Below, piece after piece: positions 1,428 to 41,191 of a DNA stretch of 64,000 nucleotides. The notes beneath the pieces are model-generated. The model ran no database searches, was not told the DNA's origin, and worked only from the letters and a program-made list of their open reading frames with translations. Location: contig JBAYUN010000004.1 of NCBI GenBank assembly GCA_041675085.1, positions 2,032-66,031 of the forward strand. The letters are read 5' to 3'. The translations under genes and the position numbers were made by a program. The DNA is from Minisyncoccota bacterium. Lineage in GTDB: Bacteria; Patescibacteriota; Minisyncoccia; Phycocordibacterales; UBA9973. The stretch's first letter is position 1. Each line of letters begins with the position of its first letter.

Positions 1428-3389
1428 TTATTTATTCAAAATAACACGTGATTGAGGTCCTAGTATACCGTCAGCTTTTAGTCCGTTGTCCGCTTGGAAT
1501 TTCTTTAATGCTACTAGAGTATTGTAGCCAAATTGATTCACCTCTCTGCCCCCTTCTGTGCCAGATACGTTGTAACCTTTTTGATTAAGTTTTTGTTGCA
1601 AACATTTTACTTCATTTGAGTTCTTGCCTTTTAGTAAAGTCCTACTGATTGTACAAATATTTGAATTCTTAGAAATACTAGCTCCCAAGACTTGCCCTCC
1701 TACACATTCTGTACTCATTGAAGTTCTCGGGTAAGAACCAGTATTACCTGCTGCCTTCCAAGAGCTAATAGTTTCGGTCTTGTAGTCTCTAGTACTCGTA
1801 GCACTCGGATACCATTTTTGACAATAAGTTAATGGGTCGATATTGGCACCACTACTACCGTCTGGATCTGTTTGCCAAGTGCCAGATGAATCTGTATGTT
1901 GATTTACTTTACCATACCAAAATGAAATGCGTGGAGTTGTATCGACTGATGGAGTTGTAGGTTCTGCTGGGACCACAGGGTCAGGTGTGACAGGATCTGG
2001 AGTGACTGGGTCGGGAGTAGTCGGAGTTGTCGGTTCTGTTGGAGTGGTAGGTGTAGTTGGAGTCTCTACTGGTGTAGTAGGGGTGACTGGATTTACTGGT
2101 GTAACAGGATTTGTGCCTGGGTCTATGACCGGAGTCTCAGGATTTTCTCCTTTTTTATTGATAGTGAAAAAATCTTTTGAAAAATCTTCAGCTTTTTTAT
2201 CATAAGACTCTGGGCCTAGATGGATTTTAAAATTTTTACCAAATACTATGTCTGGGAAGGAGCCCACAGCTAGAGAAATTTTCTCTTCTCCATCATTCGG
2301 GGTACCCTTCACCAAAATAACAATATATTCTTTTTGATTATTTTTATATATTAAAGATATATTTATTTTTTTATCAGCTGAAGCTTTATTATTTTTCCAA
2401 GTTACTAAAATACTTTCATCTAGATTATAAACTTCTCCACCATTAGGTGAAGTAATTTTAAAGAAGTAAGAATTATTTTCATCTTCATCTATACCAGCTT
2501 GAATACATAAATAAGACAACTTTGTAGAAGTGTGATTATTAAAATTGTATCTCTCATGCCAAGTACTAATAGTCTCTAATTTGTATTCTTTGATGCCAAT
2601 AGTTTTTGGATACCATTTTTTACAATAAGTTAGATAATCTAAATTCGCACCAGAGATACCGTCGGGATCTGTTTCCCATTTACCATTGGTTGTATTAATA
2701 TGTTGATTTACTTTCCCCCACCAAAACATAACTCTAGGTAATAAATCATCACTACCTGGTTTGTCTTCTCCTTTCTTTTCTTCCACGATAGCATCATCTG
2801 ATTTTTTGTCTTCTGTTTTTACCTCTGTGGTTTTTGCCTCTTCTTTGACCTCGGTTTTCACTTCACTTACTACTTCTTTTTGAACTTCTTCTTTAGCTTC
2901 ATCTTTCTTCGATTCTGTTGCATTTTCTGAATTTTCTATTTTTTTATCTTCTTCTTTAATTTCTGTTTTTTCTACATCTTTGACTTCGTTGGACTGAGTC
3001 TCAGAAACAACACTTTCTTCTTTTTGGACTTCTTCTGTACAAGTTAATTTATTGATAGTCTCGCGAGTAAGTGGACCCACGAAGCCAGCAGAGACTAGAT
3101 TGTTGTCTCTTTGAAAAGTCCTAACAGCTCCTAAAGTCTGCTCTCCAAAGTATCCATTTGGTTCTGCTTTTAGATAACCTTTTTCTTTTAAGAAATTCTG
3201 CAACAACAAAACATCTCTTGTATTAGACGCTCTGTCAGAAGCACGATATCTCAAACTCTTATTAATAGAAACACAAACAGCAGAATTCTCTGTGTTTTGA
3301 ATTTGCTCTATTTCAGCATTTTGAGCAAAAGAAAAAATAGGGCTAATTATAAAAGTTAAAACCAATACAAGCTTTATGATTTTTTGCAT
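1428..3389 (-). CDS. Secreted cell-wall-associated protein: signal peptide, N- and C-terminal PG_binding_1 domains, Glu/Lys-rich and Pro/Thr-rich linkers, two copies of the YWWGKVNQH..LTYCKKWYP domain
   Basis: 653-aa ORF with PG-binding motifs (LQNFLKEKGY..FG..T..AV..FQ, and C-terminal VKCLQQKLNQKGY..DGILGP). The repeated modules are PRVMFWWGKVNQH.. and PRISFWYGKVNQH... Confidence 0.8.
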   Translation of the reverse strand: MQKIIKLVLVLTFIISPIFSFAQNAEIEQIQNTENSAVCVSINKSLRYRASDRASNTRDVLLLQNFLKEKGYLKAEPNGYFGEQTLGAVRTFQRDNNLVSAGFVGPLTRETINKLTCTEEVQKEESVVSETQSNEVKDVEKTEIKEEDKKIENSENATESKKDEAKEEVQKEVVSEVKTEVKEEAKTTEVKTEDKKSDDAIVEEKKGEDKPGSDDLLPRVMFWWGKVNQHINTTNGKWETDPDGISGANLDYLTYCKKWYPKTIGIKEYKLETISTWHERYNFNNHTSTKLSYLCIQAGIDEDENNSYFFKITSPNGGEVYNLDESILVTWKNNKASADKKINISLIYKNNQKEYIVILVKGTPNDGEEKISLAVGSFPDIVFGKNFKIHLGPESYDKKAEDFSKDFFTINKKGENPETPVIDPGTNPVTPVNPVTPTTPVETPTTPTTPTEPTTPTTPDPVTPDPVTPDPVVPAEPTTPSVDTTPRISFWYGKVNQHTDSSGTWQTDPDGSSGANIDPLTYCQKWYPSATSTRDYKTETISSWKAAGNTGSYPRTSMSTECVGGQVLGASISKNSNICTISRTLLKGKNSNEVKCLQQKLNQKGYNVSGTEGGREVNQFGYNTLVALKKFQADNGLKADGILGPQSRVILNK

Positions 3390-5426: not shown

Positions 5427-5511
5427 AAAGTGATTATACCAAGAATTCTACAATAAATACAAAAACCTCTCCTGTTTAACAAGAGAGGTTTTTGAGTAAA
5501 ATTTTATCCAA

Positions 5512-6006
5512 TTAGCTTTGTAATAAGATAGTAGATACGTTTTGAGATTTATCACAATCCACTAAATAAGTTACAGGTAACTTGCTAGCAGAAAGTTTGA
5601 TAATTTTGAAACCATAAGCTTTGATCGTATAAGTAGAACCGACTTTAACTGTACGTGATACAGGAGCACGGTTGTCTAGCATTATACTTGTGCCATTTTT
5701 GAAAGTCATCTTATCAGGACTTGCTTGGCAAGTTTTATCTAATTGAAGACGAGCATCTTTGTATTTTATTAAAGCTTGCTCATAACTCAAACTAACTGCA
5801 GGTGAAGTAGCTACGTCTTTGTCAGGAGTTGTATCTAATTCCCCTGCTACGTTTTCTTCTACTACAACTTCTTCTTGTACTATATTGTTTTCATTTTCCA
5901 ATACATCATCAGCATCATTTTTTTGTGTCGACATAAAAACAATAACTGCGATAACTACCAACACAATTCCACCTATCATCCAAATATTCTTATTTTTTTC
6001 TTCCAT
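5512..6006 (-). CDS. Membrane-anchored hypothetical protein
   Basis: 164-aa ORF with an N-terminal TM segment. Confidence 0.55.
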   Translation of the reverse strand: MEEKNKNIWMIGGIVLVVIAVIVFMSTQKNDADDVLENENNIVQEEVVVEENVAGELDTTPDKDVATSPAVSLSYEQALIKYKDARLQLDKTCQASPDKMTFKNGTSIMLDNRAPVSRTVKVGSTYTIKAYGFKIIKLSASKLPVTYLVDCDKSQNVSTILLQS

Positions 6007-6090: not shown

Positions 6091-6501
6091 TTATTTTTTA
6101 AGGGAATGGTAGAGTATCAGAATTACAGAAAAAACAAAATATAGCACAGAGAAATATAAAGCAAATATATCTTTTTCGATTCTAAAGTAAACGTCCCCTC
6201 CGTTCCATGGAGTAATCCATATAATTAAAAAATAAATTATTAAATAAAAAAACAAAGTTTTTATCCAGTATTTAAAAATCTTATTATTTAAAAAAATCAA
6301 AATAAAATTAGGAATTAAAATTGTAACAAATATAAGCAAAAACATTAGCACATAATTCATTGATTGCAAACAAGAACTTTTTTGAATACTACAAATATCC
6401 AACAGGATTGTTTTATTTAAAAATATAAAAAACAAAACAGTCAAAAAAGAGCTAAGCAAAAATAATTTCTTCGCGCTAAACCAATTCAAAATTTTATCCA
6501 T
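6091..6501 (-). CDS. Small polytopic membrane protein
   Basis: 136-aa hydrophobic ORF. Confidence 0.45.
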   Translation of the reverse strand: MDKILNWFSAKKLFLLSSFLTVLFFIFLNKTILLDICSIQKSSCLQSMNYVLMFLLIFVTILIPNFILIFLNNKIFKYWIKTLFFYLIIYFLIIWITPWNGGDVYFRIEKDIFALYFSVLYFVFSVILILYHSLKK

Positions 6502-6505: not shown

Positions 6506-9500
6506 TTAAATTTTAATAAATCTTTTAATTAAGAAACTGCTCAATAATACTATAAATATAATAACATAAAAAGAAGTATTTTTATTTGTATTTTTTTCTT
6601 TTAAGACATCTACTGATTCCTTCGGGCTATCATCTGCAATCTCTTCTGCTTCTATCTGCACAGCACCTTCACTCTTATTTTCGATCAATACTTTTTCTTC
6701 TTTTTGTATTTTTATATCTTCACTCTGACTAGGTATTTCTGACTCGACTCCTAGAACTATACCGATACTTGGAGTAATATTTTCTGTTTTTGATACTAGC
6801 TCTTTTTTAGCTTCATTATCTTTATTTATCAATATCACTACTCCATGAGAAGACGGAGGAGTAATAGGCTCCGGCGTCGCCACCTTGGGATAAATTGTAT
6901 CTATCGTCCCATCACCGTCTGAATCCACCTTGAGTTCGGCTTTACTAACTTCAAAATCTTCTCCAATATAAAGATACGCCAAAGTCTTATCCGAGCTAGG
7001 TATCATTTCAAAATAATTCTCTTGTATTATATTGTTGCCCTCTTGCCTCTCGACGTCTAAAGTAAAACTACCTTCTTCATAGCCGTCTAATTGCAAAGTG
7101 TACGGAATACCTGCAGGCGCTGAGATGAATTGAACTGTGCCAATCATATCATAATTCACATTAGGTATTTCTTGCTTTATCTCTTTTGTGACGGGATCGA
7201 GTCCTGTATATCTACCCTCTTTATCAAAGATACCCAAGGTTAAAGGTGAGTGTAAGGTGAAATGAAGACGAGCATTACTTGCAACAAAATTCAAATTATC
7301 ATTTTTTAAAACAATCCCTTCGTTGTCAGTGAAAACTTTATCAGTAATTTGCGCCTGAATAAATTGTATTAAATTCTGAATTTCTAAAATATTTTTATGG
7401 TCTCTTCTGGGTCCAGGTAAACTGTTAAAAAGAGGCAAATTAATAACCCACTCCTCCACATTCTCACGATTTTCCATCCACAAAGCACTTGGAAAAGCTA
7501 CTGTCGAATCTCCATCGACCGATACTATCGGTTTATGCGAAACGTATTCTCTACCTAGTCCGAGGAGTTTGCGTTTGATTACATATTTTAATCCTACTTT
7601 TGTTTCTTCGCCCCAACCTGCAACTTCTATGATTTTAGTGTTTGGACTCGGTTGCCAATTGTCTATGACTCCATGAGTTAGTTCTGCTTGAGAATATAAA
7701 TACTCATTTACTATGTTTGGCTTGTCGGTATCACTGACGCTAGGTTTAGCACGCCCGTCACCACCCAAAACAAAATCTTTTAATTCTTCTTTTGTGTTGA
7801 TAGAGCTACCGTATTTAGATATTAAATTTTCTAATAAAGGATGATCTTGGAATGATAGAATTGGATTTTGATCTGTATCTACAGTATTAAAATATCCACT
7901 AGATGGAGCTAGGTTGTATATCGTCGGCATATTCTCTCCGAATTCCCGAGACCGCTCAGAAGGCATCAGTATACCAAAAGGCCCTAAAGGTACGCCATGG
8001 AGCATAGCGATAGTCGCCTCTGGTGTGCCGACTTGAGGCACAGCTATAAAAATTATTTTTTCTATTTGGTTGTAGAGTGGATCATTTGTATCTTTTAATT
8101 TCTGAACCAAGGCTTTGATAACGAGTCCTCCGGTACTGTGGGCTATAAGAGTGACTTTGCCTGTCCTAGAAGTTCTCTGTAATTCACGCAACTCACTCAC
8201 AATAAATGATTCAGAAAAATCGCCACTATTTAAATATGACAAATTCTCTCCGATAACTTTCCCGTTTATAATAATATCTTCTAAAGAAAGTCTCCAATCA
8301 TAAGGAATCAGAGCATAGTCTTCAATCAAACTCAATTCAGTATTTTTCAAATTTCTTAAATCCGCAATAAATGATTTATAAATATTCACAGTCAAAGCTT
8401 CGTCAATAACTCCGAGCTCTCCGCCGTCCCCTTCTACACTCTCAGTATCATTTTTTGTATAAACATTATTTTTACTTTTCCCAAATTCATCTAAGAACAT
8501 AAACTCTTGCAAAACTTTATGTGGTGAAACCCAAAGTTGTTGCTCTCCACAGAACATAGGATCCCTAGGCGTAACCGAACTACAATCAAAAACTTCACCA
8601 TACATTCTAGAACCTTGCACTCCCGGGAAAAACATAACATTAGAATTACAATTTTTTACACACTCTTCTACTGGTGGCCAGCTAGGTAGCCAAGGTTCAA
8701 AAAGGATATGTTCACTCACAGAGTCGCCAAGCCCATTAGGATTTAAATCCACATGATACGGCCCAGTAGCGTCACCCCAATAATTATTGTTAAAATCTAA
8801 ATCTACGTCTCTAAATGTAAAAGCTCCCGATAGAATATTGTTATGTATATTACTTTTATTTGCTGAGAATACTGAGTCGTAAACAACAAAACCATATAAG
8901 TTATCAGTGATCTCGCTATCAGTTATTTTTACAAAACTATCTCCAAAATTATTAAAAACAATAAACCCAGAATCCATAGCCCCAAAGACTTTTACTTTTT
9001 TAAAATTAGCCTGTACGTTGTTGAATAAAGACATACCATAAACACCACAATTCACAGACCCAGTATTAAAATCCACCGCAGAATTATTGTAAACAGAAAT
9101 CCCAGTATTATCACAAGATATCTCAGAATTCAACATATTAAGATGAGAATCATTATAAACTAAAAATCCACCACGACTACCACTTAGGCTCCCGTCTTTG
9201 AAATTCAAATTACTATTACCAAATACAGATATGCCAGAATTAGATTGATCAAGACTCAGGATATCTACATTAGTGAATGATGCTGAAGCATTATTATAAA
9301 TATTTACAATAGAATCTTGATTAAGACTCTCAACTTTAGAATTTTTTAATATTAAATTGCTGTAATCCTGGACTTCTATTTTTGCCTCGCCCGAGAAAAG
9401 AGAGTCATTTATCTCAACCATACTAGAGTCGTACAAATACAAACTCGTCGCTTTTAAATCTGCAAATTCTGAATTAGTTTCAAAAAATAAAATATCATTA

Positions 9501-10477
9501 TTGGTATCTAGTCCAGTCGACTGCGCCCGACCACCCTCATAAAATACAAACAAATTTGACCTATTTATAATATAGTTCAAAACTGAATTTCCCGAATTGT
9601 CCCTAATCACAAGATCCACATAACCATCAAAATATACAGGGTCCTCCTCTGCACCCAAAACTTTCAAAACTCCTTCCACAAAGAAAATACTAGAATTAAA
9701 TTCTACCACTACTCCAGGCTCGATAACCAAAGTCGCTCCCGAGGCAAGAGTGATATCTTCGTTGACTACATACGGACTACCCTCTTTTGTCCAAGTTGTA
9801 TCTGTAGTAATATCGTCTAAGATTACTGTCCCAGTACCACTATCAGGAGAATCATCTTCACTATCTGATAAAATATAATTCACCGAAAGAGAAATAAAAT
9901 CATGCCCCGTAGTTGTACCGCTTGCCGTCGGAGTCGCGCGATATGCTGAAAATCTAACTTTAGTATTATTTATAAGACTCGCAGTATTCAAGACAGAACT
10001 AGCATCCAAGACATCAACATGATCAACGCTAGAAATACCCACAGTAGATCCAGATATCTCGACAAAACCAACTCCATCCCAAACTTCTATCTTCGATCCT
10101 GCCAAAGCACTCGAACGCTGAAATTCATGATTTATTTTTACTTCATTTATCACCGCATTTGCTGGAACATTTGGCGAAAAAATAAATTCGATGTACCTGT
10201 CGGCAACATACGTATTTTCATCTGGCCATTTATCGCTACGCATTCTATCTACTCCATTACCCGGCTCAGAATCAGAAAAACTTAATTTTTCAATATCACC
10301 TTCTGAAAAAATCTCGGCAACACCAGAACTTTGATCCACACCAGAAGTCACATAATAGACCCCCATATTTTCTGCAATAACTACAGAAATAAAAAAACTG
10401 TTCAACAGAACAGCCATAAGAACAAAAACAAAAAAGTTTTTAAAAATAGAAACCCTGGTTTTTCCTACCAGCGACAT
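6506..10477 (-). CDS. Giant (1323 aa) surface protein: signal peptide, parallel beta-helix repeats, alpha/beta-hydrolase (lipase-like, nucleophile elbow AHSTGG) domain, C-terminal TM anchor
   Basis: An N-terminal hydrophobic segment is followed by repeated N/D/G-rich beta-helix-like units. VTLIAHSTGGLVIKAL is a GxSxG nucleophile elbow, and the terminal FYVIIFIVLLSSFLIKRFIKI is a membrane anchor. Confidence 0.75.
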   Translation of the reverse strand: MSLVGKTRVSIFKNFFVFVLMAVLLNSFFISVVIAENMGVYYVTSGVDQSSGVAEIFSEGDIEKLSFSDSEPGNGVDRMRSDKWPDENTYVADRYIEFIFSPNVPANAVINEVKINHEFQRSSALAGSKIEVWDGVGFVEISGSTVGISSVDHVDVLDASSVLNTASLINNTKVRFSAYRATPTASGTTTGHDFISLSVNYILSDSEDDSPDSGTGTVILDDITTDTTWTKEGSPYVVNEDITLASGATLVIEPGVVVEFNSSIFFVEGVLKVLGAEEDPVYFDGYVDLVIRDNSGNSVLNYIINRSNLFVFYEGGRAQSTGLDTNNDILFFETNSEFADLKATSLYLYDSSMVEINDSLFSGEAKIEVQDYSNLILKNSKVESLNQDSIVNIYNNASASFTNVDILSLDQSNSGISVFGNSNLNFKDGSLSGSRGGFLVYNDSHLNMLNSEISCDNTGISVYNNSAVDFNTGSVNCGVYGMSLFNNVQANFKKVKVFGAMDSGFIVFNNFGDSFVKITDSEITDNLYGFVVYDSVFSANKSNIHNNILSGAFTFRDVDLDFNNNYWGDATGPYHVDLNPNGLGDSVSEHILFEPWLPSWPPVEECVKNCNSNVMFFPGVQGSRMYGEVFDCSSVTPRDPMFCGEQQLWVSPHKVLQEFMFLDEFGKSKNNVYTKNDTESVEGDGGELGVIDEALTVNIYKSFIADLRNLKNTELSLIEDYALIPYDWRLSLEDIIINGKVIGENLSYLNSGDFSESFIVSELRELQRTSRTGKVTLIAHSTGGLVIKALVQKLKDTNDPLYNQIEKIIFIAVPQVGTPEATIAMLHGVPLGPFGILMPSERSREFGENMPTIYNLAPSSGYFNTVDTDQNPILSFQDHPLLENLISKYGSSINTKEELKDFVLGGDGRAKPSVSDTDKPNIVNEYLYSQAELTHGVIDNWQPSPNTKIIEVAGWGEETKVGLKYVIKRKLLGLGREYVSHKPIVSVDGDSTVAFPSALWMENRENVEEWVINLPLFNSLPGPRRDHKNILEIQNLIQFIQAQITDKVFTDNEGIVLKNDNLNFVASNARLHFTLHSPLTLGIFDKEGRYTGLDPVTKEIKQEIPNVNYDMIGTVQFISAPAGIPYTLQLDGYEEGSFTLDVERQEGNNIIQENYFEMIPSSDKTLAYLYIGEDFEVSKAELKVDSDGDGTIDTIYPKVATPEPITPPSSHGVVILINKDNEAKKELVSKTENITPSIGIVLGVESEIPSQSEDIKIQKEEKVLIENKSEGAVQIEAEEIADDSPKESVDVLKEKNTNKNTSFYVIIFIVLLSSFLIKRFIKI

Positions 10478-10520: not shown

Positions 10521-10553
10521 CTGTGGATAACTATCCAAGGGCATCCCTTGGAT
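10521..10553 (+). repeat. REP element copy A (ctgtggataactatccaagggcatcccttggat); overlaps the 3' end / stop region of the RAYT gene
   Basis: Nested palindromes tggata-ac-tatcca and atccaaggg-cat-cccttggat. The element contains TGTGGATAA, the reverse complement of the DnaA-box consensus TTATCCACA. Confidence 0.85.
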
Positions 10554-11193
10554 GATTTAACCATTCGTCTATTTCTTTTAGAAAATCTTGCTTTGAAGTA
10601 AAATATTCTGGAAAAGCTTTTATGTTTAGAATCAACACTTCCCTTCTAGGTACTTCTAAAAAATCTAAATAGCTCGAGTTGCTGTAACTGTACAAATAAT
10701 CTTTAGTTTTAGATAAATCATTTATACCTTGCTCCTTCCAAGTTGGGTCAAAAATCTTTACAGGATTGAGGTGAATATACATAAAAATATATTTTAAATA
10801 TTCATCAGAATCTAAATGCTCGGCTCGGAACCTACCTTCAAACAATTTACCCGTCCTGTCGTACTTCTTGTTGAAATACATAGAATACGCAGTCGATAAT
10901 TTCTCCATAAAAATACTAATACCGTTTTCTTGTTTTTCTTTTAGCAATAAATGAAAATGATTTGGCATCAAACAATAACTGCCAATATCGACAAGAGTTT
11001 CGCCTCGTTCTATCTTGTCCAAGGGCACCCCTTGGATAGTTTTAAAGACAACTGGTTTCGAGCCATTGCATACAAATAAAAGCTTTATAAACCTCTTGTA
11101 GTCAAAATCATCCAAAAATATCAAGGATTTATTGTTTCCCCTATTGTAAACATGATAGTATTCGTTAATTGAAAAATTTATCTTTCTTTCCAT
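10531..11193 (-). CDS. tnpA_REP: REP-associated tyrosine transposase (RAYT, IS200/IS605-type Y1 HUH transposase)
   Basis: HUH motif (YCLMPNHFHLLL), the HVYNRGNN motif and conserved Tyr residues downstream. A degenerate REP lies inside the ORF (11027-11050). Confidence 0.8.
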   Translation of the reverse strand: MERKINFSINEYYHVYNRGNNKSLIFLDDFDYKRFIKLLFVCNGSKPVVFKTIQGVPLDKIERGETLVDIGSYCLMPNHFHLLLKEKQENGISIFMEKLSTAYSMYFNKKYDRTGKLFEGRFRAEHLDSDEYLKYIFMYIHLNPVKIFDPTWKEQGINDLSKTKDYLYSYSNSSYLDFLEVPRREVLILNIKAFPEYFTSKQDFLKEIDEWLNHPRDALG

Positions 11194-12070: not shown

Positions 12071-13528
12071 TTAGTTTACTGAACTTAGCATCTTTTCTTT
12101 GGTTTTTGGACCTATTAGTCCGTCAGCAGTCAATCCATTATCCTTTTGCCATTGCTTGATAACTGCTATCGTCTTTGGTCCTAATTTACCGTCAACTACT
12201 AGACCTAGGTTTAAAACTTGATTCAAGAATCTTTGCAATTCTTTTACAGCTTCACCCTTGCTGCCATTTTTCAAGATAGTGTTTCCAAAATTGTATTTAA
12301 TTATCGGAGTTGCAGATAGAGTGCCAGTATTCACTACGCAAGACTTACCCGTAGTAGTACTAAAGCCAGTTGTTCTATTATCGCAACCTGGTATAACATT
12401 GTCGGCTACTGTAATACTGATACTAATAGGTACGATAATTTCAGAACCATTAGTAGAAATAGGAGTTACAGTCAAAGTCGGAGTCGCAGACACAACTAGA
12501 GGAGCAGGAGCAGGACTTCCACTTCCTCCACTATGCACCACAGCCACATAATCAAAAGTCGCTACTGGAGAAGTGTTATCAAAAAGATCACAACCTACGG
12601 CTTTGACTGTAGTCGAAGCTGTAACATTGAAAGGATTTGCTGTGAGGCCTGTAGTACAAGTCGGAGTCGAGCCATCTACAGTATAATGAATATCAGTAGA
12701 ACCAGTTGAAGATAAAGTCAGAGCTTGAGATGTGAGGTTTACTAAAATCATATTTGTAACGCTCGAAGTCGGAGTGCTTGGGATCTGACGATCAGATACG
12801 TCTTGGTTTTGAGTTGAAGCATTTGAATTTGCAAAAGGTGAAATATCGCGAACTGCATCAAGAGCTATATCTAAACCTGCTCCAGACCAAAAGTCAGGAT
12901 TAAGCAAAGGTTGAGTTGTAAGATTCACAATAGAAGCATCAGTACCATCGACAGCTGCGGCTGTTATCACTACACCATTAGCGGTCAAATCGAAATCAGA
13001 CCCATTAGCTTCTTGAACCGCTACATCTTCAGAAAAAGTAACTGCTATGTTTGTATTACTTGTGGCACTAGCAGAAACAAAAACAGGATTCTGATCATCG
13101 TTCACAGCCAGAGAAGCTCCATGAGCCACAACTTCATTCGTATCTCCGTTGGTGTCAGTTACAGCCAAAGCATCTACATACAATCCATGACTAGCGTCGT
13201 AAGCAGTAGCTGTATCAGAGAAAGGAGTACCTGCGAAAGTTAGAGTCGCTACCCAAGGGTTACCTGGAGTAGTAATAACAGCTGAGACAGGAGTCAGAGG
13301 GCTCACTCCCCCAGTATTCACGTCTATGTGGAATTTAGAGAAATCGATAGAAGCCAAGTTGTGTCCTGGATTATTAAAATAAACCTGAATAGTATTAGAG
13401 GAAACAATATTTCCTCCAGCTGTACCGATATCGGCAGCGGCATTCGCTTTTAGACTAAAAGAGTAAACAAAGACAAAAACCAAACTCGTCACCAATAAAG
13501 ACAAACTCAACTTTTTTATGATTTGCAT
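12071..13528 (-). CDS. Secreted surface protein with Ig-like/beta-rich repeats and a C-terminal PG_binding_1 domain
   Basis: Signal peptide, with the C-terminus GSKGEAVKELQRFLNQ..DGKLGPKT..IKQWQ. Confidence 0.7.
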   Translation of the reverse strand: MQIIKKLSLSLLVTSLVFVFVYSFSLKANAAADIGTAGGNIVSSNTIQVYFNNPGHNLASIDFSKFHIDVNTGGVSPLTPVSAVITTPGNPWVATLTFAGTPFSDTATAYDASHGLYVDALAVTDTNGDTNEVVAHGASLAVNDDQNPVFVSASATSNTNIAVTFSEDVAVQEANGSDFDLTANGVVITAAAVDGTDASIVNLTTQPLLNPDFWSGAGLDIALDAVRDISPFANSNASTQNQDVSDRQIPSTPTSSVTNMILVNLTSQALTLSSTGSTDIHYTVDGSTPTCTTGLTANPFNVTASTTVKAVGCDLFDNTSPVATFDYVAVVHSGGSGSPAPAPLVVSATPTLTVTPISTNGSEIIVPISISITVADNVIPGCDNRTTGFSTTTGKSCVVNTGTLSATPIIKYNFGNTILKNGSKGEAVKELQRFLNQVLNLGLVVDGKLGPKTIAVIKQWQKDNGLTADGLIGPKTKEKMLSSVN

Positions 13529-13713: not shown

Positions 13714-13956
13714 TTATTCAGTGTAAAAAATATTGTTTATCTCTTCAAGAGTTAGGAATGGTTTCAAAGCTCTGATTATAGCTTTCTGTGTTCCCCTATC
13801 TAATTCGTCATGATTTGGTATTGAGATATTTTGAGTTTCGTTTATATTAACACGACTTAATCTTATATGACTTCCTTTTTGCCTAACAACAACAAAACCA
13901 AGCGCTTCTAATTCTTTAATAATTTCTTTACCTGAAAGTCTTTTAAGATTAGGCAT
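13714..13956 (-). CDS. hicA: HicA-family mRNA-interferase toxin
   Basis: GSHIRL.. and IPNHDELDRGTQKAIIRAL match the HicA/YcfA fold signature. The gene overlaps hicB by 8 nt. Confidence 0.7.
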   Translation of the reverse strand: MPNLKRLSGKEIIKELEALGFVVVRQKGSHIRLSRVNINETQNISIPNHDELDRGTQKAIIRALKPFLTLEEINNIFYTE

Positions 13957-14170
13957 ATATCATATCTGCTAAATCAAAATTAATCATAACAGGATGAGAA
14001 ATATTATCCTTTTGATCAACTTCTTCGAAATACAAATCTGTAGCTTCTTTTATATTACTTACAAGCTCCTCAAAGGTTTTACCTTGAGTTACTATCGCAT
14101 AGTCATTTGCAGAGCCGACATAATAGCCGTCTTCTCCTTTTTCTATTTTAAATAATACTATTTTTGACAT
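13949..14170 (-). CDS. hicB: HicB-family antitoxin (short, UPF0150 domain only)
   Basis: YYVGSANDYAIVTQGKTFEELVSNIKEA motif, lying upstream of and overlapping hicA. Confidence 0.6.
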   Translation of the reverse strand: MSKIVLFKIEKGEDGYYVGSANDYAIVTQGKTFEELVSNIKEATDLYFEEVDQKDNISHPVMINFDLADMIYA

Positions 14171-14236
14171 ATTTATATTATATCACAAAATGTTAGAAAA
14201 GATAGGTTTTATTTTATAAAGGGTCTAAAAAAGGAG

Positions 14237-14269
14237 CTGTGGATAACTATCCAAGGGCATCCCTTGGAT
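14237..14269 (+). repeat. REP copy F
   Basis: Identical 33-mer. Confidence 0.85.
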
Positions 14270-14280
14270 GTGGCAAATAC

Positions 14281-14604
14281 TTATTTTTGTTTTTTCTTTT
14301 CTAATAAGTACACACGAGAAGCTAGTTCGTCAAACATACGATGAGTAACAAATTTATCACCTAGATCCAACATATCTCTACGAGTTGCTTTAACATTTTC
14401 GTCTATTTGTTTTACTTTTTCATCTAAAGCATCAAACTTAGAATCTATGCCATCGAATTTAGCATCTATAGCATCAAATTTAGAATCTATACGTTCAAAT
14501 CCCTTAGCAGTCATAATAGCTAAGTTGTTTACAGTTTCTGAAAGATTGTTAACAGTACCTGCTAAATCTTCGATAGTCATTTTCTTTTTTACGACTTTCT
14601 TCAT
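14281..14604 (-). CDS. Small coiled-coil protein with 8-aa tandem repeats (SKFDAIDAKFDGIDSKFDALD)
   Basis: 107-aa ORF with about 24-bp periodicity in the DNA at roughly 14425-14500. Confidence 0.6.
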   Translation of the reverse strand: MKKVVKKKMTIEDLAGTVNNLSETVNNLAIMTAKGFERIDSKFDAIDAKFDGIDSKFDALDEKVKQIDENVKATRRDMLDLGDKFVTHRMFDELASRVYLLEKKKQK

Positions 14605-14640: not shown

Positions 14641-14925
14641 TCTGTATTTATAAAGGGTCTAAAAAAGGAGCTGTGGATAACTATCCAAGGGCATCCCTTG
14701 GATTGGGAGTTTTGGATTTTGGGAAGGTCGGACCTTCCCAGATTTTGGTTTCTTGGTCTTGGGTAGGTCTGACCTCCCCTTTTTAAAATACAAATTGGAA
14801 CGCAAAAAGCCCTCGCTTTCGCGAGGGCTTTTTGCTGCTTTTTACGGCATCCCCTAAAAGTTTTCTTCTTTATTATTTCTTATTTATAAGATTGCATTAT
14901 TCTTTTAGTTGAGTCAAACTTACAA
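14611..14925 (-). repeat. Composite intergenic cassette, unit 1: promoter + REP copy G (14670-14702) + gggaaggtc hairpins + conserved terminator (14803-14843) + AT-rich tail
   Basis: Long stretches are shared with the units at 15735-15955 and 16456-16732. Confidence 0.7.
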
Positions 14926-15025: not shown

Positions 15026-15649
15026 TTATATGGATACTACTGGTATTTCTTTCTTTATATTTTCTTTAATATCCAAAAGAGACATATAAAATACTTTATC
15101 TTTCTTTTCACTAACCAAAGCTCGTAGTTTAGTTGAATACACAGCAACAGTAAGCCCAGACTTGATGTCTCGACCAGCATAAGAAACTATTGTAACTTTT
15201 GTAACTCCTTTTTCAAGAGCCTTTCTTATAACATATTCAAAATCTCCATCCCCTGTAAAAATCAACAACTCAACGTCAGGAGCAGATTTATCAATAACAT
15301 CAACCGCCAGTTCCACATCACAATTAGCTTTCTTGCGATATCCCATATTTATAATTTGAATATTATCTTTCAAGCACCCAGAACATTTAAAAGCTATAAT
15401 TTTATCTTTATTTTTGTAAGAAAAAATTGATTTACTTTTAACGATACAACAAGGAGTTTTATTTAATAGATCAAATTCTTTTGCTGTTTCTATATCACCA
15501 TTATCGATACCTGTATAAAAAAGAACCTCAGAACAAGATTTTTTATTTTTTAAAAAGTCAGCTACTTTCATCCAGTCAACAACAAAGTCTAACATTTTTT
15601 CAGTTGTACTTGCTGTATTTTGAACATCCACAAAAGCATATCTTTTCAT
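15026..15649 (-). CDS. NYN-domain (LabA-like) putative RNase; the ORF extends to 15697 but the likely start is MKRYAFVDVQN
   Basis: The acidic residues FVDVQN.., DVELAVDVID and LIFTGDGDFEYVI are typical of PF01936. Confidence 0.65.
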   Translation of the reverse strand: MKRYAFVDVQNTASTTEKMLDFVVDWMKVADFLKNKKSCSEVLFYTGIDNGDIETAKEFDLLNKTPCCIVKSKSIFSYKNKDKIIAFKCSGCLKDNIQIINMGYRKKANCDVELAVDVIDKSAPDVELLIFTGDGDFEYVIRKALEKGVTKVTIVSYAGRDIKSGLTVAVYSTKLRALVSEKKDKVFYMSLLDIKENIKKEIPVVSI

Positions 15650-15734
15650 AAATAAAATTATACTATATTTTTTTCCTTCATTCAATACGATAAACATAAG
15701 CTGGATTTATGAAAGTTAATACATACAATCTGTT

Positions 15735-15955
15735 TTAAAACTAGGCTGTGGATAACTATCCAAGGGCATCCCTTGGATACGGGGTTTTGGTGAGTAGTGG
15801 GTAGTGGATATTGAGATTGGAACCCCAGTCAGTCGCGACTGACTGGGCAAGAACGCAAAAAGCCCTCGCTTTCGCGAGGGCTTTTTACTGCTTTTTGCGG
15901 CATCCCCTAAAAGTTTTCTTCTTTCTTATTTCTAAGATTGAATTATTCTTTTAGT
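15735..15955 (-). repeat. Composite cassette, unit 2: REP copy H (15746-15778) + 22-bp perfect palindrome ccagtcagtcgcgactgactgg (15825-15846) + terminator hairpin (15862-15881)
   Basis: Sequence identity with units 1 and 3 across aacgcaaaaagccctcgctttcgcgagggctttttgctgcttttt..attgaattattcttttagtt. Confidence 0.7.
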
Positions 15956-15963: not shown

Positions 15964-16452
15964 TTAACTTAGAACTTTTTCTTCTAGGATTTCTATTCTT
16001 CTATCGTGATTATTTACAGTATCAGACATATCATCAAATTTTTCATTTAACTCTTTGAAGTTTTCTCTAGTTTCTATTTTAAATGATTTTAAATCTGTTT
16101 CAAGATTATTAAAATGAGTATTAGTTTCAAGTTTAAAAAGATTCAGATTAGTTTCTAAGCCATCAACTTTATCAGTTAGCTTAGAGACACTAATTGCAAC
16201 AGTTTCAACTAATTGAGTAAGGCTTCCTAGATCACTTTTTATATCAACTATGTCATTCTTAACACCAGCCATATCTCCTTTAAGACCACCTATGTCATTT
16301 TTAATGTCGAGCAAGTCTTCCTTGGTGGCGAAAGACTTTAGGTCTTCTTTGGTAGCGAAAGACTTTAGATCTTCTTTAGTGGCAAGATTTTCAAGATCTT
16401 TTTTGGTTAAGAATATTGAAGCTAATTTTTGTATGTCTTGATCTGTTAACAT
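15964..16452 (-). CDS. Coiled-coil tandem-repeat protein (LKSFATKEDL x3, 27-bp DNA repeats 16315-16395)
   Basis: 162-aa ORF; paralogous to 63119..63604 through the ATKEDL repeats, and shares its promoter with 14281..14604. Confidence 0.6.
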   Translation of the reverse strand: MLTDQDIQKLASIFLTKKDLENLATKEDLKSFATKEDLKSFATKEDLLDIKNDIGGLKGDMAGVKNDIVDIKSDLGSLTQLVETVAISVSKLTDKVDGLETNLNLFKLETNTHFNNLETDLKSFKIETRENFKELNEKFDDMSDTVNNHDRRIEILEEKVLS

Positions 16453-16455: not shown

Positions 16456-16732
16456 TTAATTATATCACACAAGAATTTTGTGATGCAATCTGTATTTATA
16501 AAGGGTCTAAAAATGAACCTGTGGATAACTATCCAAGGGCATCCCTTGGATTTATGGTTTTGGGTTTTGGGGAGATCAGACCTTCCCTTTTCTTTTTTTT
16601 CCTTTTTTAAAATACAAATTGGAACGCAAAAAGCCCTCGCTTTCGCGGGGGCTTTTTGCTGCTTTTTACGGCATCCCTTAAAAGTTTTCTTCTTTCTTAT
16701 TTCTAAGATTGAATTATTCTTTTAGTTCAAAA
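16456..16732 (-). repeat. Composite cassette, unit 3: promoter (16459-16488) + REP copy I (16519-16551) + hairpin + terminator (16633-16652)
   Basis: As for units 1 and 2. Confidence 0.7.
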
Positions 16733-19700
16733 CTATGATTGTACAGTTTGAGAAATTGGAAGATTTTTAACTCCGTATTCTCCTGTCCAGTCATTAGTTG
16801 TTGTTGAGTGTCCTGAAGCTGAAACGTCAGACCAAATGATTGTTACATCAGAGTCAGCAGTTTCTACATCAGCTGCACTATCTGAAGCTGCGTAAGCAGC
16901 ATCACCAGCAAGCTTTGTAACTACGTAGTCAACATCAATGTCAACAGAAGCAGCAGTCATACGTAATTCGTATGTCTTTGTTCCTGAAACTTGTTGTACA
17001 GCTGTAGCATCGAACTCTATAGTTCCTGAAGTGTTTGTAGCACCTACAGTTGTAAGAGTATCAGTACCAGCAACTTCTGCGTTAGCAGTAACATCCCATA
17101 GTACAGCGTTAGTTAATACTGGGTCAGCAGTCTTTGAAACTTCAAAGAACAATCTTGACCATTCAATAGTACCACCGTTTGAAGTGATAGTGAATCTTGA
17201 AAGCACGTTTTCACCTGCTTTTAATTTATCACCACTCAAAGCAACAGCTGTAATAGTTGGAGTTGCAGCGTAAGCATACATTGCATTTCCAGCTGGACCA
17301 TTTTCTAATGCTTCACAAGTTGAGTTTCCACAACCTGCATCGTTAGCTGAAGCATCTGAAGTACCAGTTGAAGTATTTGTAGCTGTGAAAGTTGATAGAG
17401 TTACAAGTTGTGAAGAACCTGTATCACCTGCACCAATTCCAACAGAACCTAATACTAATTTAACAGTCAACACTTTGTTTTGGTTAGCTGGAACATTCCA
17501 GTTAAGACCATTGAAAGTAACTGGACTAGCACCTGGTTTTGAAGCAATCAAAGTAGCACCGTCGTAAAGTTCTACACTTTGTGCCACAGTAGTATTACCT
17601 AATGTGAAAGTAAGATCTGTTACGTTGTATCCAGCAGTAATTGCAGCGAATTTGAATGCAGCAGCAGTAACTGTTTGATTGTCATGGACAATCGCAGCAA
17701 CTGGAGTTGAAGCATCTGTAGTAGCTGTAATTGAAGCTGTACCTGCTGTAATTGTTTGACCAGTTGTAACAGCTGGGGCAACCGCAGTTCCTGAAACACT
17801 AGCTGTACCTGTCAAAGTTAAGTCTATGTCAAAGTCAGTACCTACTGTTGCAGCAGAACCAAGATTTGCATAAAGCTCAATTGACATATTTGTATTCTTA
17901 ACCAATGTGTGATTGATTGAGAAAGCATTTCCTGTAGCACTAACTGTAGCTAAAGGAGAAGGTTGTGAAACAATGTTTCCTGCTGCATCTTTAACAACAA
18001 TATACATGTTTGTTAAATCATCAGCAATATCAAAGTCGTCAGCAGAACCTCCTTCATCAAATGAAACTGTTGTTAAAAGAACATCTTCTACTGAAGAACC
18101 TGCAACGTTCCAAGAACCGATTTTGAAACCAGTAGCTGGAAGAGAAACAGATTGGTTAGCATAAGTTGCGTTCTTTGTAAGACTAACAGTTGCTGAAGCA
18201 ACAGTTAATGTATTACCATTAACAGCTGTACCAGGAGCATTGAATGATCCTAGAGAATCAACTTTTTGAGCGTTTGATGAACCAATAGCGATAACACCAA
18301 TTATAGTATCACCAGCTGTAAGGTCGTTTGTACCGTCATTGTCAAACATATCTGCATGTAAGTCCATAAGTACTGGTGTACCTGGGTTTACAGTGTAATT
18401 CAATGTGTATTGTGTATAAGCAGGTGTTGAAGAGTCTTCCATCAAAGTTGATGTAGAACCGTATTGAACACCACCTATAACGATACGTCCATTTCTTAAT
18501 GAATCTACAGCGTTATCAGAAGTTGTGAATGAAGCACGGATATTTTCGATCTTGATAGGTTCACCGTAAGCTGTAACTTTGTAAGTAGCGATTTTAACAT
18601 CGTTACCAGCTAAAGTTGCGTTTGTTGAAGAAGATGAAACATCTTTTTCAATGATTAATGAACCTCCACCTTGACCTGAAATTGTACTTTCAGTAGCAGG
18701 AGCCCATGGTAATGGATCAGTTGTTACACCACCTACAACACCAGGAACAATGTTAACTCCGAAAGATGAATCTACGAAATCAACATCAGCTGCACTTCTC
18801 AAAGAGAAATGAACTGTTCTTGAAGCACCAGATACGATATCAGCATCAACACGTACTACACGTGTTCCTGATTGTAGCATTACTGGAGTTGAAGTCATGT
18901 CAAAAGTAACATAACCGTTAACATCTACACCAGCAGCTGTCGCAACTTGAACTCCATTTACATAAAGTTTAAAGCCACCGAAAGCATTAGCTGGAGCTGA
19001 TCCAACATTTCTGAAAGCTACTCTTTTCATCCAAACATCTCTTTGTGAGATATTTAAACTTGATTGCCACACTGTTACGTTTGCACCTGGGTTAAGAGTT
19101 GCATTTGTAGGTGTTTCTATTCCAGAAGTAACGCCAGCTAATGTAGCATTAGCTATTGAATGAATGTTACCTGAAAGGTTAACAGTTGAAGTTGTGCCTC
19201 CAGCTGTAACTGTTGCAAGCATCATACCTACAGTTTGACCTGAAGTATTAGCAGCAATGTCAGACTTTACAGAAATAGTTTTTGTACCGTTAACTGTGAA
19301 GATTCCTGAAGGAACGTTGAATGTAACTGTACCGTTGTTTGAAACTGAAGCTGCATCTGTCAAACGTGTAGCACCGTCAAATAGGTAAACGTTTGAAGGA
19401 GTAGCGTCAGCTGAAACTCCGATTCTTTGTAAAGTAACAGCAGTAACTGTGCCTGATCCACTGAAAGTGAAGTTAGCTAAGTTAGCTGTAGCTTGTCCTG
19501 CAACAAGAGTAGATGAAGCTGGATTGTTTGAAGACAATGCAACTGTAACTGGTCCTGTTTGTGAAGTTGAACCTGAACATGGTTGTCCAGTTGTAGAACT
19601 GAATCCTGATGTTGATGAACAACCTGCTGGAAGAGTTGTACTAACTCCTGTAGAACAAGATACTCCTGTGATAGGAGAGAATCCTGCTGATGATGTACAT

Positions 19701-20046
19701 CCTGCTGGATAGTTACCTCCTGTTGAAGTTGTACCTGTCCATGAAGCTCTTGAAGCTGGTCCAAAGATACCGTCTGCTGTTAATCCCTTACTAGCTTGGT
19801 AAGCTTGTACGGCTGTTTTGGTTTTAGAACCGAAGTAGTTTGTTTCACTACCTACTGATCCTGCACCTGAAGTTGAAACAACGAATCCTTTTGAGTTAAG
19901 ACCTTGTTGAAGTTCTTTAACTTGACTGTTGTTTGAACCTAGTTTTAGTGTTGAAGTGATAGCAGCTGAAGCTGTTCCTGTTGAAAGGATAACTGCAGCA
20001 GCAACCATCAAACCTAAAACGAATTTTGATTTGAATAAATTACTCA
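16733..20046 (-). CDS. Giant Ser/Thr/Ala/Gly-rich secreted surface protein with an N-terminal PG_binding_1 domain (S-layer- or adhesin-like); the ORF reaches 20113 but the likely start is MSNLFKSKF at 20046
   Basis: A signal peptide and LKLGSNNSQVKELQQGLNSKGF..FG..T..AV..YQ..KGLTADG are followed by about 1000 aa of low-complexity beta-rich sequence. Confidence 0.7.
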
Positions 20047-20640
20047 TATTTTTTTTAATTACGCCATTAATAAGTTTCGACAAAACTAAAAGCGTATTTT
20101 CTATCGTCCTCATCCCTACTTAATTAATAAATAATAATAATGCGTAGTGACTTGCGAGGACAAAAAGATTTGAACTAAACTTGAAAACATAACTAAAGAC
20201 ATTTGCAATTGTGATGCAAACATTTTTATTGTATTAAGTTTTCAATGACCTTTCTTTTACCGAATCTTTGCAATAAATTTATTTTACTAAACTTAAAACA
20301 AAGACAGGCTTTGATCCTTTGTGTACTAAATCTTTTCGACGAAATTTAGCAACAAGATCTTATACTATATATAAGTATGAGAATAAGACTTTCGTAAAAT
20401 TCTTCACACTAATAATATATACGTATACATTATAATATAGACTCTCGAATAAGAGCAATATTACAACGTGTGGATAACCGATAATTTCGCATAAGAAAAA
20501 TAAATTCTTCGCTAGTTACTCCACCTATCTATATTGGCATATTTTTGACATAAAAGCAAACACAAATTAGGTTCTAGTCGCTAGGTTCTAGGTTCTAGGA
20601 AAATGCAAAAATGCAAAAAACAAAGAAAGGTTATTAGAGA

Positions 20641-31607: not shown

Positions 31608-32546
31608 TCGCGTAATGGTTCAATAGCTTGGCACCACTCAAAGGAATACCATTGAGATATGCCATATACAACAAACAAAAATATGCCAAGAATTAGAAGA
31701 GAAGCTGCGGACTTAGTTCGTAGAGGTTGGAGTGCAAGAAAAGTAGGTAGAAGATTGGGGTTCCACCATACTGCAATCATGGAATGGGTAAGAAAATCTA
31801 AAATTATGGGATATGGGAATATACCAACAAAAAGTTCTCGTCCGTATTCACATCCTAAACAATTAAAGGAAGAAGTAATCATTAAAATCGTAAAGAAAAG
31901 ATTAGAGCATGGAAGGTGTGCTGAAGCTGTACATAAACAACTTCAAAACGATGGACTAAAAGTTTCTTTGTCTTCTGTAAAGAGAACTTTGGAAAGAAAA
32001 TATTTAATCAAGAAACGAAGTCCATGGAAACGATATCATCCACCTGTAGAACGTCCATATCCCCTTAAAAGTGGTGATTTAGTAGAGATTGATACTATTC
32101 ACAGAATGATAGACAAGAAGAAACGTTTGTATGTATTTGTATTGATAGATGTGTATTCTAGATGGATATATGCTAAAGCATATGAAAGAATGGGTGCAAA
32201 GGTTGGAGTGCGTTTTGTCAAAGAAGCACAGAGACATGCACAGTTTAATTTTAATATGTTACAAAGTGATCATGGACCAGAGTTTTCTAATTGGTTCGTA
32301 TCACGTATTGAAAAGAAACATAGATATACAAGAATTGGTAAACCTAATGACAATGCTCATATTGAAAGAGTTAACAGAACTATTCAAGAAGAATGTTTAG
32401 GTAAATTACCTAATGATGTTAAACAAATTAATTGCGAACTTAAAAAATATTTGCAATACTACAATTACAAAAGAGTACATGCAGGAATTAATTATTTAAC
32501 TCCTATGCAAGTGGTGTGAAGCTATTGGTTAGAATACGTACTCGAA
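31608..32546 (+). mobile_element. IS481-family-like insertion sequence (single DDE transposase ORF; candidate imperfect terminal inverted repeats (TIRs) at 31625-31642 and 32510-32527)
   Basis: CAATAGCTTGGCACCACT matches the reverse complement of agtggtgtgaagctattg at 16 of 18 positions; it encloses the transposase gene. Confidence 0.55.
31659..32519 (+). CDS. DDE (rve/integrase-core) transposase, IS481/IS3 superfamily
   Basis: An N-terminal HTH; ..DTIH..LIDVYSRW.. and the QSDHGPEF..KPNDNAHIERVNRTIQEE integrase-core signature. Confidence 0.8.
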   Translation: MPYTTNKNMPRIRREAADLVRRGWSARKVGRRLGFHHTAIMEWVRKSKIMGYGNIPTKSSRPYSHPKQLKEEVIIKIVKKRLEHGRCAEAVHKQLQNDGLKVSLSSVKRTLERKYLIKKRSPWKRYHPPVERPYPLKSGDLVEIDTIHRMIDKKKRLYVFVLIDVYSRWIYAKAYERMGAKVGVRFVKEAQRHAQFNFNMLQSDHGPEFSNWFVSRIEKKHRYTRIGKPNDNAHIERVNRTIQEECLGKLPNDVKQINCELKKYLQYYNYKRVHAGINYLTPMQVV

Positions 32547-41018: not shown

Positions 41019-41117
41019 ATATTTAATTGTTTTATTATGAAATTAAAAAACTTGTCTAATTTAATAGAAACATAATTTTTATAAAATGTCAATAATAAAA
41101 GATTCAGTTAACGATTG

Positions 41118-41191
41118 TCCGTCCTCATGGATTCGAACCATGGACCCCAGAGGTATAAGCTCTGTGCTCTAACCAACTGAGCTAAGGACGG
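41118..41191 (-). tRNA. tRNA with anticodon UAU (reads AUA), i.e. tRNA-Ile(UAU)
   Basis: Manual cloverleaf: acceptor CCGTCCT/AGGACGG, D-arm GCTC-AGTTGGTTA-GAGC, anticodon stem CAGAG/CTCTG with loop CTTATAC, T-arm CATGG-TTCGAAT-CCATG, discriminator A. Confidence 0.65.

Follow-up and report, generated by a model that had tools for sequence, protein, structure and literature searches.

The window analysed here is a stretch of 64 kb (64,000 nucleotides of contig JBAYUN010000004.1, from a Minisyncoccota bacterium). It is bacterial by its content, which includes the 5' end of a 23S rRNA gene, a tmRNA gene and ribosomal protein genes, and its G+C content is ~34%. On its reverse strand, at 6506-10477, lies a gene for a protein of 1323 amino acids (aa), which a first, sequence-only reading had described as a surface-anchored beta-helix protein with a lipase-type domain and as a candidate for the scavenging of host lipids. 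The domains, homologues and surroundings of this gene point to a surface-tethered, multidomain hydrolase related to the animal lipid enzymes lecithin:cholesterol acyltransferase (LCAT) and lysosomal phospholipase A2 (LPLA2), and a lipid-scavenging role for it is plausible. Absent from the first description were a beta-sandwich at aa 1061-1205, a linker of ~90 aa, a large family of relatives in the Patescibacteria and a conserved small membrane protein encoded as a partner. The gene and its parts are as follows.

6506..10477 (-): gene of the surface-tethered multidomain LCAT-like hydrolase, a complete open reading frame (ORF) of 1323 aa plus stop, with full-length homologues at 93-26% identity
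10373..10477 (-): putative signal peptide, aa 1-35 (MSLVGKTRVSIFKNFFVFVLMAVLLNSFFISVVIA / EN), recognised by hydrophobic aa 14-35 and a basic n-region
9863..10369 (-): N-terminal beta-sandwich (a jelly-roll like those of carbohydrate-binding modules, CBMs, and discoidin), aa 37-205, the distal tip, from an AlphaFold2 (AF2) model and Foldseek
8684..9835 (-): right-handed parallel beta-helix, aa 215-598 (~340-380 aa), from the AF2 model (pLDDT mostly >90) and Foldseek
7328..8662 (-): alpha/beta-hydrolase of the LCAT/LPLA2 type, aa 606-1050, including accessory (membrane-binding/cap-like) parts
8291..8302 (-): YDWR motif, aa 726-729, common to LPLA2 and LCAT and invariant in 88/88 family sequences
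8135..8137 (-): codon of the predicted catalytic Ser781 (AHSTGG), aligned with LPLA2 Ser165 and conserved in 88/88
7508..7510 (-): codon of the predicted catalytic Asp990 (DGDSTV), conserved in 88/88
7397..7399 (-): codon of the predicted catalytic His1027 (DHKNILE), aligned with LPLA2 His359 and conserved in 87/88, with one gap
6863..7297 (-): conserved beta-sandwich at aa 1061-1205, modelled by AF2 as all-beta (pLDDT >90), ending in a calcium-site-like DxDGDGxID
6590..6862 (-): low-complexity acidic linker rich in E, K, S and I, aa 1206-1296 (~90 aa), recognised by composition, poorly conserved and with pLDDT <50 at its start
6509..6589 (-): C-terminal transmembrane (TM) anchor and basic tail (FYVIIFIVLLSSFLIKRFIKI), with hydrophobic aa 1299-1318 followed by KRFIKI

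The catalytic domain and its display on the cell surface

Assignment of the hydrolase to the LCAT/LPLA2 (phospholipase A2/acyltransferase) class is well supported by its profile score, by the coverage of the modelled fold, by a putative catalytic triad and by the YDWR motif. The Pfam family LCAT (PF02450) matches aa 724-1003 with an E-value of 3.9e-10 and 39.9 bits against a gathering cut-off of 21, and homologues score 47-48 bits. Shorter and weaker matches to DUF7379, DUF900, DUF676 and PGAP1 (E 0.055) lie around the nucleophile elbow; of the PGAP1/LCAT-like class proposed earlier, the LCAT part is above the cut-off and the PGAP1 part is a weak secondary match. The AF2 model of aa 596-1215 (pLDDT 91.9, pTM 0.92) shows an alpha/beta-hydrolase and its accessory parts, with an all-beta domain after them. 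Foldseek searches with the hydrolase model returned LPLA2 (E 1e-13), LCAT (~1e-10) and Tle4 (2e-9), and the top structural matches were lipid enzymes throughout. A single-sequence phmmer search against PDB sequences gave no match, LPLA2, LCAT and Tle4 being reached by the family profile only. In LCAT and LPLA2 alike, the alpha/beta-hydrolase is joined by a membrane-binding domain and by a cap domain, which bears a lid (PMC6277198). Since LPLA2 is covered almost completely, such accessory parts are to be expected in the hydrolase domain of the 1323-aa protein as well, and the model implies that membrane-binding and cap domains are present within aa 606-1050.

The nucleophile elbow, VTLIAHSTGGLVIKAL, occupies aa 775-790 and contains Ser781. 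In the alignment made with the family profile, the LPLA2 chain 4x92, an S165A mutant, shows Ala in the column of Ser781, the pair Gly989-Asp990 aligns with the GD of DGDGTV in LPLA2 (Asp327), and IPYDWR at aa 724-729 aligns with APYDWR. The HSxGG motif is conserved in 88/88 of the family sequences, a set that is 34-69% identical to the hydrolase domain of the 1323-aa protein and on which all these conservation counts are based. Their alignment shows the domain to be under strong purifying selection. The lipase-type alpha/beta-hydrolase with a GxSxG elbow that had been read from the sequence was recovered by Pfam (LCAT) and by Foldseek (LPLA2), the fold was predicted, and a triad of Ser781, Asp990 and His1027 could be placed in it.

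From the N-terminus onwards, the protein is formed by a signal peptide, a jelly-roll, a beta-helix, the LCAT-type hydrolase, a beta-sandwich, an acidic linker and a TM anchor. Its N-terminus, MSLVxKTRVSI, is kept in aligned homologues, which indicates that the start codon of 6506-10477 is correct, and the ORF of 1323 aa first proposed can be retained. Just two segments, aa 14-35 and aa 1299-1318, have the hydrophobicity needed for a membrane helix. The first of these, with a basic n-region before it and conserved -1/-3 positions after it, looks like part of a cleaved Sec signal (aa 1-35), as relatives keep Ala at position -1 of the cleavage site and, at -3, a residue that is small or aliphatic (VIA/EN here; ASA, AFA, TSA and VYA elsewhere). 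The second is followed by KRFIKI. Both the signal peptide and the C-terminal hydrophobic anchor of the sequence-only reading are upheld as predictions. An extracellular, membrane-tethered topology is well supported by these predicted signals, and four Cys residues grouped where the hydrolase domain begins (aa 606, 610, 632 and 643) also count in favour of surface exposure. Anchoring by sortase (LPXTG) or by another sorting signal was considered and rejected: the C-terminus, ...KEKNTNKNTSFYVIIFIVLLSSFLIKRFIKI, has no such motif and none is conserved in relatives. Because no LPXTG-like motif is found, a plain TM anchor is the simpler reading.

Between hydrolase and anchor, the C-terminal sandwich was detected in 255/373 family proteins and is therefore part of the family core, and the linker at aa 1206-1296 is presumed to be a wall-spanning stalk. 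An NCBIfam scan of the whole protein matched no family, and Pfam scans of the N-terminal 565 aa alone and the C-terminal 297 aa alone gave no match. In source annotations the homologues appear as 'hypothetical', as 'alpha/beta hydrolase' or, misleadingly, as 'pimeloyl-ACP methyl ester carboxylesterase'.

The N-terminal head, the family and the partner gene

The AF2 model of aa 36-600 (pLDDT 88.9) has two units, a beta-sandwich of ~170 residues and a long right-handed beta-helix. Here the earlier description holds in kind and not in length: a beta-helix is found by AF2 and Foldseek at aa ~215-598, shorter than the ~500 aa first given, since aa 37-205 form a separate beta-sandwich. Foldseek matches of this jelly-roll include the discoidin domain of muskelin, the carbohydrate-binding domain of BcsB, a chondroitin-sulfate CBM and a Cry toxin domain. 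According to local phmmer searches it is present in ~12 of 373 family proteins, among close and medium relatives, and always at the N-terminus. A word-index database search with the 175-aa jelly-roll alone returned nothing despite the existence of full-length relatives with 93% identity, a result taken as a limit of the index.

In the beta-helix, successive short strands run over aa ~215-560 with pLDDT >90, and its Foldseek matches are a GH87 alpha-1,3-glucanase (E 1e-6), AlgG, NosD and the K1 capsule lyase. The helix is closed by a cap motif, NNYWGDxxGP...PWL (aa 563-598), of which W567, G568, G572 and W596 are invariant among relatives. The Pfam family Beta_helix (PF13229) did not match aa 36-600 of the window protein at E<=1, but it does match three orthologues (P0005, P0007 and P0010) with E-values of 3.5e-9 to 5e-16; in P0005 and P0007, which are 61% and 49% identical to the 1323-aa protein, the Beta_helix/NosD matches fall in the equivalent region. 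No catalytic residues of a glycanase or lyase were identified in the beta-helix of the window protein. The models and their structural matches support a description of the N-terminal half as a beta-helix of the polysaccharide-active or adhesin type.

Such a head also raises the question of whether the substrate is a lipid at all. The enzyme could be a carbohydrate esterase or a polyester depolymerase that is held by its beta-helix and CBM-like domain on an acetylated or esterified polymer, such as a capsule, extracellular polysaccharide, cell-wall polymer or polyhydroxybutyrate. The likeness of the N-terminal half to the GH87 glucanase, AlgG, the capsule lyase and CBMs would suit this explanation, as would a CBM96 domain in one family member and the peptidoglycan-binding secreted proteins encoded by adjoining genes. 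The catalytic domain, however, argues for a lipid: it has the YDWR motif common to LPLA2 and LCAT, its top matches are all lipid enzymes, with the match to LPLA2 twofold stronger and far more complete, and no carbohydrate-esterase family of Pfam was matched. A non-lipid enzyme is considered highly improbable.

Homologues that carry names come from Parcubacteria, Nomurabacteria, Paceibacteria and related Patescibacteria, labels from which the lineage of the window was deduced, and the family is large. A profile of the hydrolase domain found 115 proteins in a database clustered at 90%, nearly all with PF02450 and the named ones from Patescibacteria. A scan of one genome per species confirmed at least 583 family loci, the best 80 of which are labelled Nomura-, Paceibacteria, Zambryski-, Yonath-, Lloyd-, Kaiser-, Moran- and Magasanikbacteria, together with a few implausibly labelled bins. 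A HMMER pass over 1.84 billion representatives gave at least 1215 clusters (50% identity) at E<=1e-30. What these proteins share is a core formed by the hydrolase and the C-terminal sandwich. The N-terminal extensions, by comparison, vary from ~30 to ~860 residues; mean column identity over 72 of them is 8%, and 17 match Beta_helix, three NosD and one CBM96, while the remainder have no Pfam match.

Several genomes carry two copies of the enzyme-partner cassette (L045/L049 in the same metagenome-assembled genome, L077/L082 on the same contig, L051/L052 and L041/L075), and in these each enzyme keeps its own partner. In L045/L049 the cores are 89% identical, the partners 59% and the N-terminal modules 38%; in L077/L082 the corresponding values are 94%, 77% and 96%. 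The difference between cores and heads in L045/L049 points to heads that are exchanged, or that change fast, between paralogues. Literature searches on LCAT, lipases or lipid acquisition in Patescibacteria or Saccharibacteria turned up no description of this family. A variable glycan-type head, an LCAT-fold enzyme, a sandwich specific to the family and a conserved tetraspan partner, together expanded across the Patescibacteria, make up a combination that appears to be undescribed.

The partner and the features that follow it on the same strand are listed below.

6091..6501 (-): partner gene, 4 nt downstream of the enzyme ORF, encoding 136 aa with four hydrophobic segments
5512..6006 (-): gene for a 164-aa N-terminally anchored protein without a Pfam match, probably the last gene of the unit
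5460..5494 (-): terminator-like hairpin with a 16-bp stem, after the gene of the 164-aa protein

A downstream partner ORF was found in 72 of the 77 family loci that are complete at the 3' end. It encodes 98-152 aa (mostly 113-152) with two to five TM segments (mostly three or four), and it mostly starts within ~50 nt 3' of the LCAT-like gene; in other loci it lies, for example, at 14071-14466 (L001), 2349-2768 (L007) and 7301-7597 (L002). Seventy distinct partner sequences align as one family with a common layout, in which a basic N-terminus (MNWFTKKK) is followed by TM1, a two-Cys loop, TM2, a basic K..F..W..F loop, TM3, a P..G.D loop and TM4 with SL..I.YKSxKK. By the positive-inside rule the protein would be a tetraspan with both termini inside and short loops outside. 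Pfam scans of the partners from the window and from L010 gave no match. The window partner is 30% identical to that of L001 (E 9e-11), and pairwise matches to more distant versions are marginal (E 0.008 and 0.04), for which reason the case for a single family is built on position, size, topology and multiple alignment of the sequences. Divergence is faster in the partner than in the enzyme core. No terminator-like site was seen between the genes of the enzyme, the partner and the 164-aa protein, and the hairpin at 5494-5460 follows the last of them, so the three genes are likely to form one transcription unit. A promoter scan was uninformative, with 28 sites found and 26 expected.

A small membrane-protein gene that strictly follows an enzyme gene (72/77) resembles a toxin-immunity arrangement. 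On this view the lipase would be a contact-dependent weapon that lyses or permeabilises a host or competitor and releases nutrients generally, like the lipase effectors (Tle) of the type VI secretion system (T6SS); the small protein would be an immunity factor and the harvest of lipids a by-product at most. The retention of a partner by each paralogue would agree with it, with partners at 59-77% identity against 89-94% for their enzymes, and so would the similarity of the hydrolase to Tle4. Yet faster divergence would be expected of any small polytopic membrane protein, the partner has only short predicted extracellular loops and bears no resemblance to Tli4, no genes of a T6SS or a type VII secretion system were found in the 64-kb window, and the 1323-aa protein is anchored, not released. 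A weapon of this kind is unlikely, and it overlaps the scavenging reading to an extent that the sequence cannot separate.

Genomic setting

Upstream of the enzyme gene lies a repeat-rich region, in which the following elements were located.

10531-11193: IS200/Y1-type transposase gene, like those associated with repetitive extragenic palindromes (REPs; RAYT-like), with a Y1_Tnp Pfam match, directly upstream of the enzyme gene
10521..10553 (.): first REP-like copy, 44 nt upstream of the enzyme start codon and before the 3' end of the Y1 transposase gene
10521, 11015, 12003, 13643, 14237, 14671, 15746, 16519: starts of the REP copies

The REP-like palindrome, CTGTGGATAACTATCCAAGGGCATCCCTTGGAT, has eight copies in both orientations between 10507 and 16563, and the full-length copies carry a perfect DnaA-box 9-mer, TGTGGATAA. 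The enzyme gene had been placed at the start of a REP-rich accessory island, and the REP-rich region is real; membership of the gene in it does not hold, and the idea that the gene is cargo of a REP/RAYT island was rejected, given that it is syntenic next to rplJ-rplL in other genomes. In L001, a 49%-identical orthologue stands in the same order of genes (peptidoglycan-binding protein, Y1 transposase, enzyme, small TM protein, rplJ, rplL and a mechanosensitive-channel protein), and the Y1 transposase at the equivalent position is 59% identical to that of the window. In L005, a short family member of 688 aa occupies the same position upstream of rplJ, with the FtsK-RecA block only ~4 kb away. 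From this synteny it follows that the variable, REP-rich stretch lies upstream of the enzyme gene.

Vertical inheritance at a conserved housekeeping site, upstream of rplJ-rplL in three lineages, would also be compatible with a domestic function. The enzyme might act in cis and target the outer leaflet of the cell that makes it, producing lysolipids for small and highly curved cells or transferring acyl chains to the cell's own glycolipids or proteins, with the 4-TM partner presenting the substrate or acceptor. The family is very widespread, the flexible stalk of ~90 aa would let the catalytic domain reach its own membrane, enzymes of the LCAT family are transacylases as well as hydrolases (PMC6277198), and cells of the candidate phyla radiation (CPR) are enriched in lysolipids (PMC7242380). 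Against such remodelling stand the rigid beta-helix and CBM-like tip, swapped fast between paralogues, which are hard to explain for an enzyme of its own membrane, and the many members that have no membrane anchor; the source of the lipids would also be left unexplained. Housekeeping remodelling is judged quite unlikely, and sequence analysis does not separate it from the reading in which lipids are taken from another cell, with which it overlaps.

Other features of the window stand apart from the enzyme. Inside the REP-rich stretch are a HicA toxin gene (13714-13956, -), a gene for an NYN-domain nuclease (15026-15697, -) and two small coiled-coil proteins (14281-14604 and 15964-16452). A second repeat family, a G+C-rich terminator-like hairpin (GCAAAAAGCCCTCGCTTTCGCGAGGGCTTTTTGC), occurs at 14802-14835, 15855-15886 and 16626-16659 within direct repeats of 107 nt. 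The locus is also rich in wall-associated surface proteins. A secreted protein of 653 aa (1428-3389, -) combines two PG_binding_1 domains with two regions in which Pfam APP_N, the N-terminal heparin-binding domain of amyloid A4, is matched above the cut-off (E 7.8e-14), which is unusual in a bacterium; its gene contains an internal direct repeat at a distance of ~800 nt (1758-1884 / 2559-2685). Large signal-peptide proteins with PG_binding_1 are encoded at 12071-13528, 16733-20113 and 57344-58729, all on the reverse strand; one of them also has Fn3_assoc/CHB_HEX_C, and the one of 1126 aa has no other recognisable domain. A protein of 932 aa (51640-54438, -) with weak matches to TrwB/TraG-D (type IV coupling protein-like) and an rve-family integrase gene (31659-32519, +) are possibly traces of mobile elements. 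A tRNA-Ile with anticodon TAT (UAU) at 41117-41191 (-) would read AUA directly and not by way of a lysidine-modified CAU tRNA. Apart from these features, the window carries genes for translation, replication and nucleotide salvage. Pfam scans of 52 ORFs found no genes of fatty-acid or phospholipid synthesis in the 64-kb window, which is compatible with the lack reported for the lineage and proves little.

Proposed function and comparison with known systems

The interpretation preferred here, which is given an even chance of being right, is that of a surface lipase targeted by glycans to a foreign cell, where it would damage the membrane and supply lipid to its producer, probably a tiny and host-dependent organism. 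The 1323-aa protein would be a type I membrane protein exposed to the outside of a patescibacterial cell (of the Parcubacteria/Paceibacteria type), the C-terminal helix holding the chain in the cell's own membrane after cleavage of the signal. From the membrane outwards there would follow a disordered stalk of ~90 residues, the beta-sandwich, the catalytic domain, a beta-helix rod of ~7 nm and the jelly-roll tip. The variable jelly-roll and beta-helix most likely bind surface glycans of another cell and so bring the lipase to a foreign envelope. By analogy with the LCAT/LPLA2 family, Ser781 would attack an acyl ester of a glycerolipid to form an acyl-enzyme, and the acyl chain would then either be released to water, with lysolipid and fatty acid as the products of a phospholipase A reaction, or be transferred to an acceptor hydroxyl (transacylation). 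Lysolipids and fatty acids would damage the membrane of the partner cell and feed lipid to the producer, and the downstream protein, with three or four TM segments, may work with the enzyme, self-protection and the handling of lipid products being the leading guesses. Whereas the domain architecture, fold, family membership, triad, topology signals, family size, partner linkage and N-terminal variability are results of the analysis, we infer the lipid substrate, the foreign target, the binding of glycans and the physiological role. CPR bacteria carry fatty-acid lipids without pathways to make them, their cells are enriched in lysolipids, which a phospholipase A could generate, and lipidomics points to neighbours as the source of these lysolipids (PMC7242380). 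No machinery for lipid uptake or breakdown has been identified in Patescibacteria (PMC11665869).

Several points weigh against this interpretation. A beta-helix with a CBM-like N-terminus is typical of carbohydrate-active enzymes, and a polysaccharide could accordingly carry the ester that is attacked. The TM anchor is found in only ~12 of 77 relatives, the others ending in a charged helical tail, so that tethering is not a family-wide trait. With a stalk of this length, the enzyme could touch the membrane in which it is anchored. Furthermore, the lack of lipid synthesis is taken from the literature on the lineage (PMC7242380, PMC11665869), the genome being represented here by 64 kb.

A more specific proposal, regarded as doubtful, is that the hydrolase, the beta-sandwich and the 4-TM partner constitute the missing lipid-acquisition module of the Patescibacteria, in which the enzyme, brought to a host membrane by an exchangeable head that binds glycans, would strip acyl chains or lysolipids from it and the tetraspan would take the products into the cell's own bilayer. 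If so, it would account both for the membranes of bacteria that lack lipid synthesis and for their enrichment in lysolipids. If, on the other hand, the enzyme were a weapon, it would represent a lipase toxin system of the contact type, Sec-dependent and widespread in ultrasmall bacteria, and the variable heads could mark host range. The finding overturns nothing; the kind of enzyme is known, and the idea of a CPR phospholipase that feeds on host membranes has already been published (PMC8080830). The source of membrane lipids in Patescibacteria/CPR is, though, an acknowledged open question, and the locus offers a defined, abundant, strongly conserved and bench-testable candidate.

The protein can be compared with several known systems. 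Right-handed beta-helix proteins (PF13229 and NosD, PF05048, with GH87, AlgG and tailspike-type depolymerases) are likewise rods of stacked short strands, and orthologues of the window protein match both PF13229 and PF05048. As in many glycan-targeting proteins, a CBM-like domain stands ahead of the rod. The window protein itself falls below the Pfam threshold, however, and its helix carries a lipase rather than being the enzyme.

LPLA2 (PLA2G15) and LCAT, the family of PF02450, share with the hydrolase a Ser-Asp-His triad in the same order and at aligned positions, PYDWR, an HS-x-G elbow, an extracytoplasmic location and Cys near the N-terminus of the domain. Sequence identity is only ~15%. 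Unlike them, the domain is one part of a bacterial surface protein of 1323 aa, preceded by a jelly-roll and a beta-helix and followed by a sandwich, a stalk and a TM anchor; its gene is accompanied by that of a 4-TM partner, and an activator of the apolipoprotein type is not expected.

Tle4 of Pseudomonas aeruginosa (PA1510/TplE; PDB 4r1d), a phospholipase effector of the T6SS with the immunity protein Tli4, is matched by the family profile with E 2.6e-5, and a Tle4-like fold was found in the model. It too is a bacterial lipase aimed at the membranes of other cells, and its gene is paired with a protective gene. In the present case no T6SS was found, the lineage is monoderm, and the enzyme would be Sec-exported and anchored, not injected. 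Pfam found no T6SS families (VgrG/Hcp/PAAR) in the 52 scanned ORFs of the window nor among the genes called next to homologues, and with Sec and anchor signals present the identity of a T6SS effector was rejected. Tli4 is soluble and periplasmic, whereas the neighbouring 4-TM protein is unrelated to it, and its immunity role is putative.

A precedent for the proposed function is the secreted phospholipase Vamp_34_196 of Vampirococcus lugosii, proposed to disrupt host membranes and to serve as a local source of lipids (PMC8080830). The enzyme described here is, by comparison, a large and tethered protein of several domains, belongs to a different CPR class and has a conserved partner gene. The two are likened by proposed logic: in each, a CPR bacterium without phospholipid synthesis would make use of an exported phospholipase (PMC8080830).

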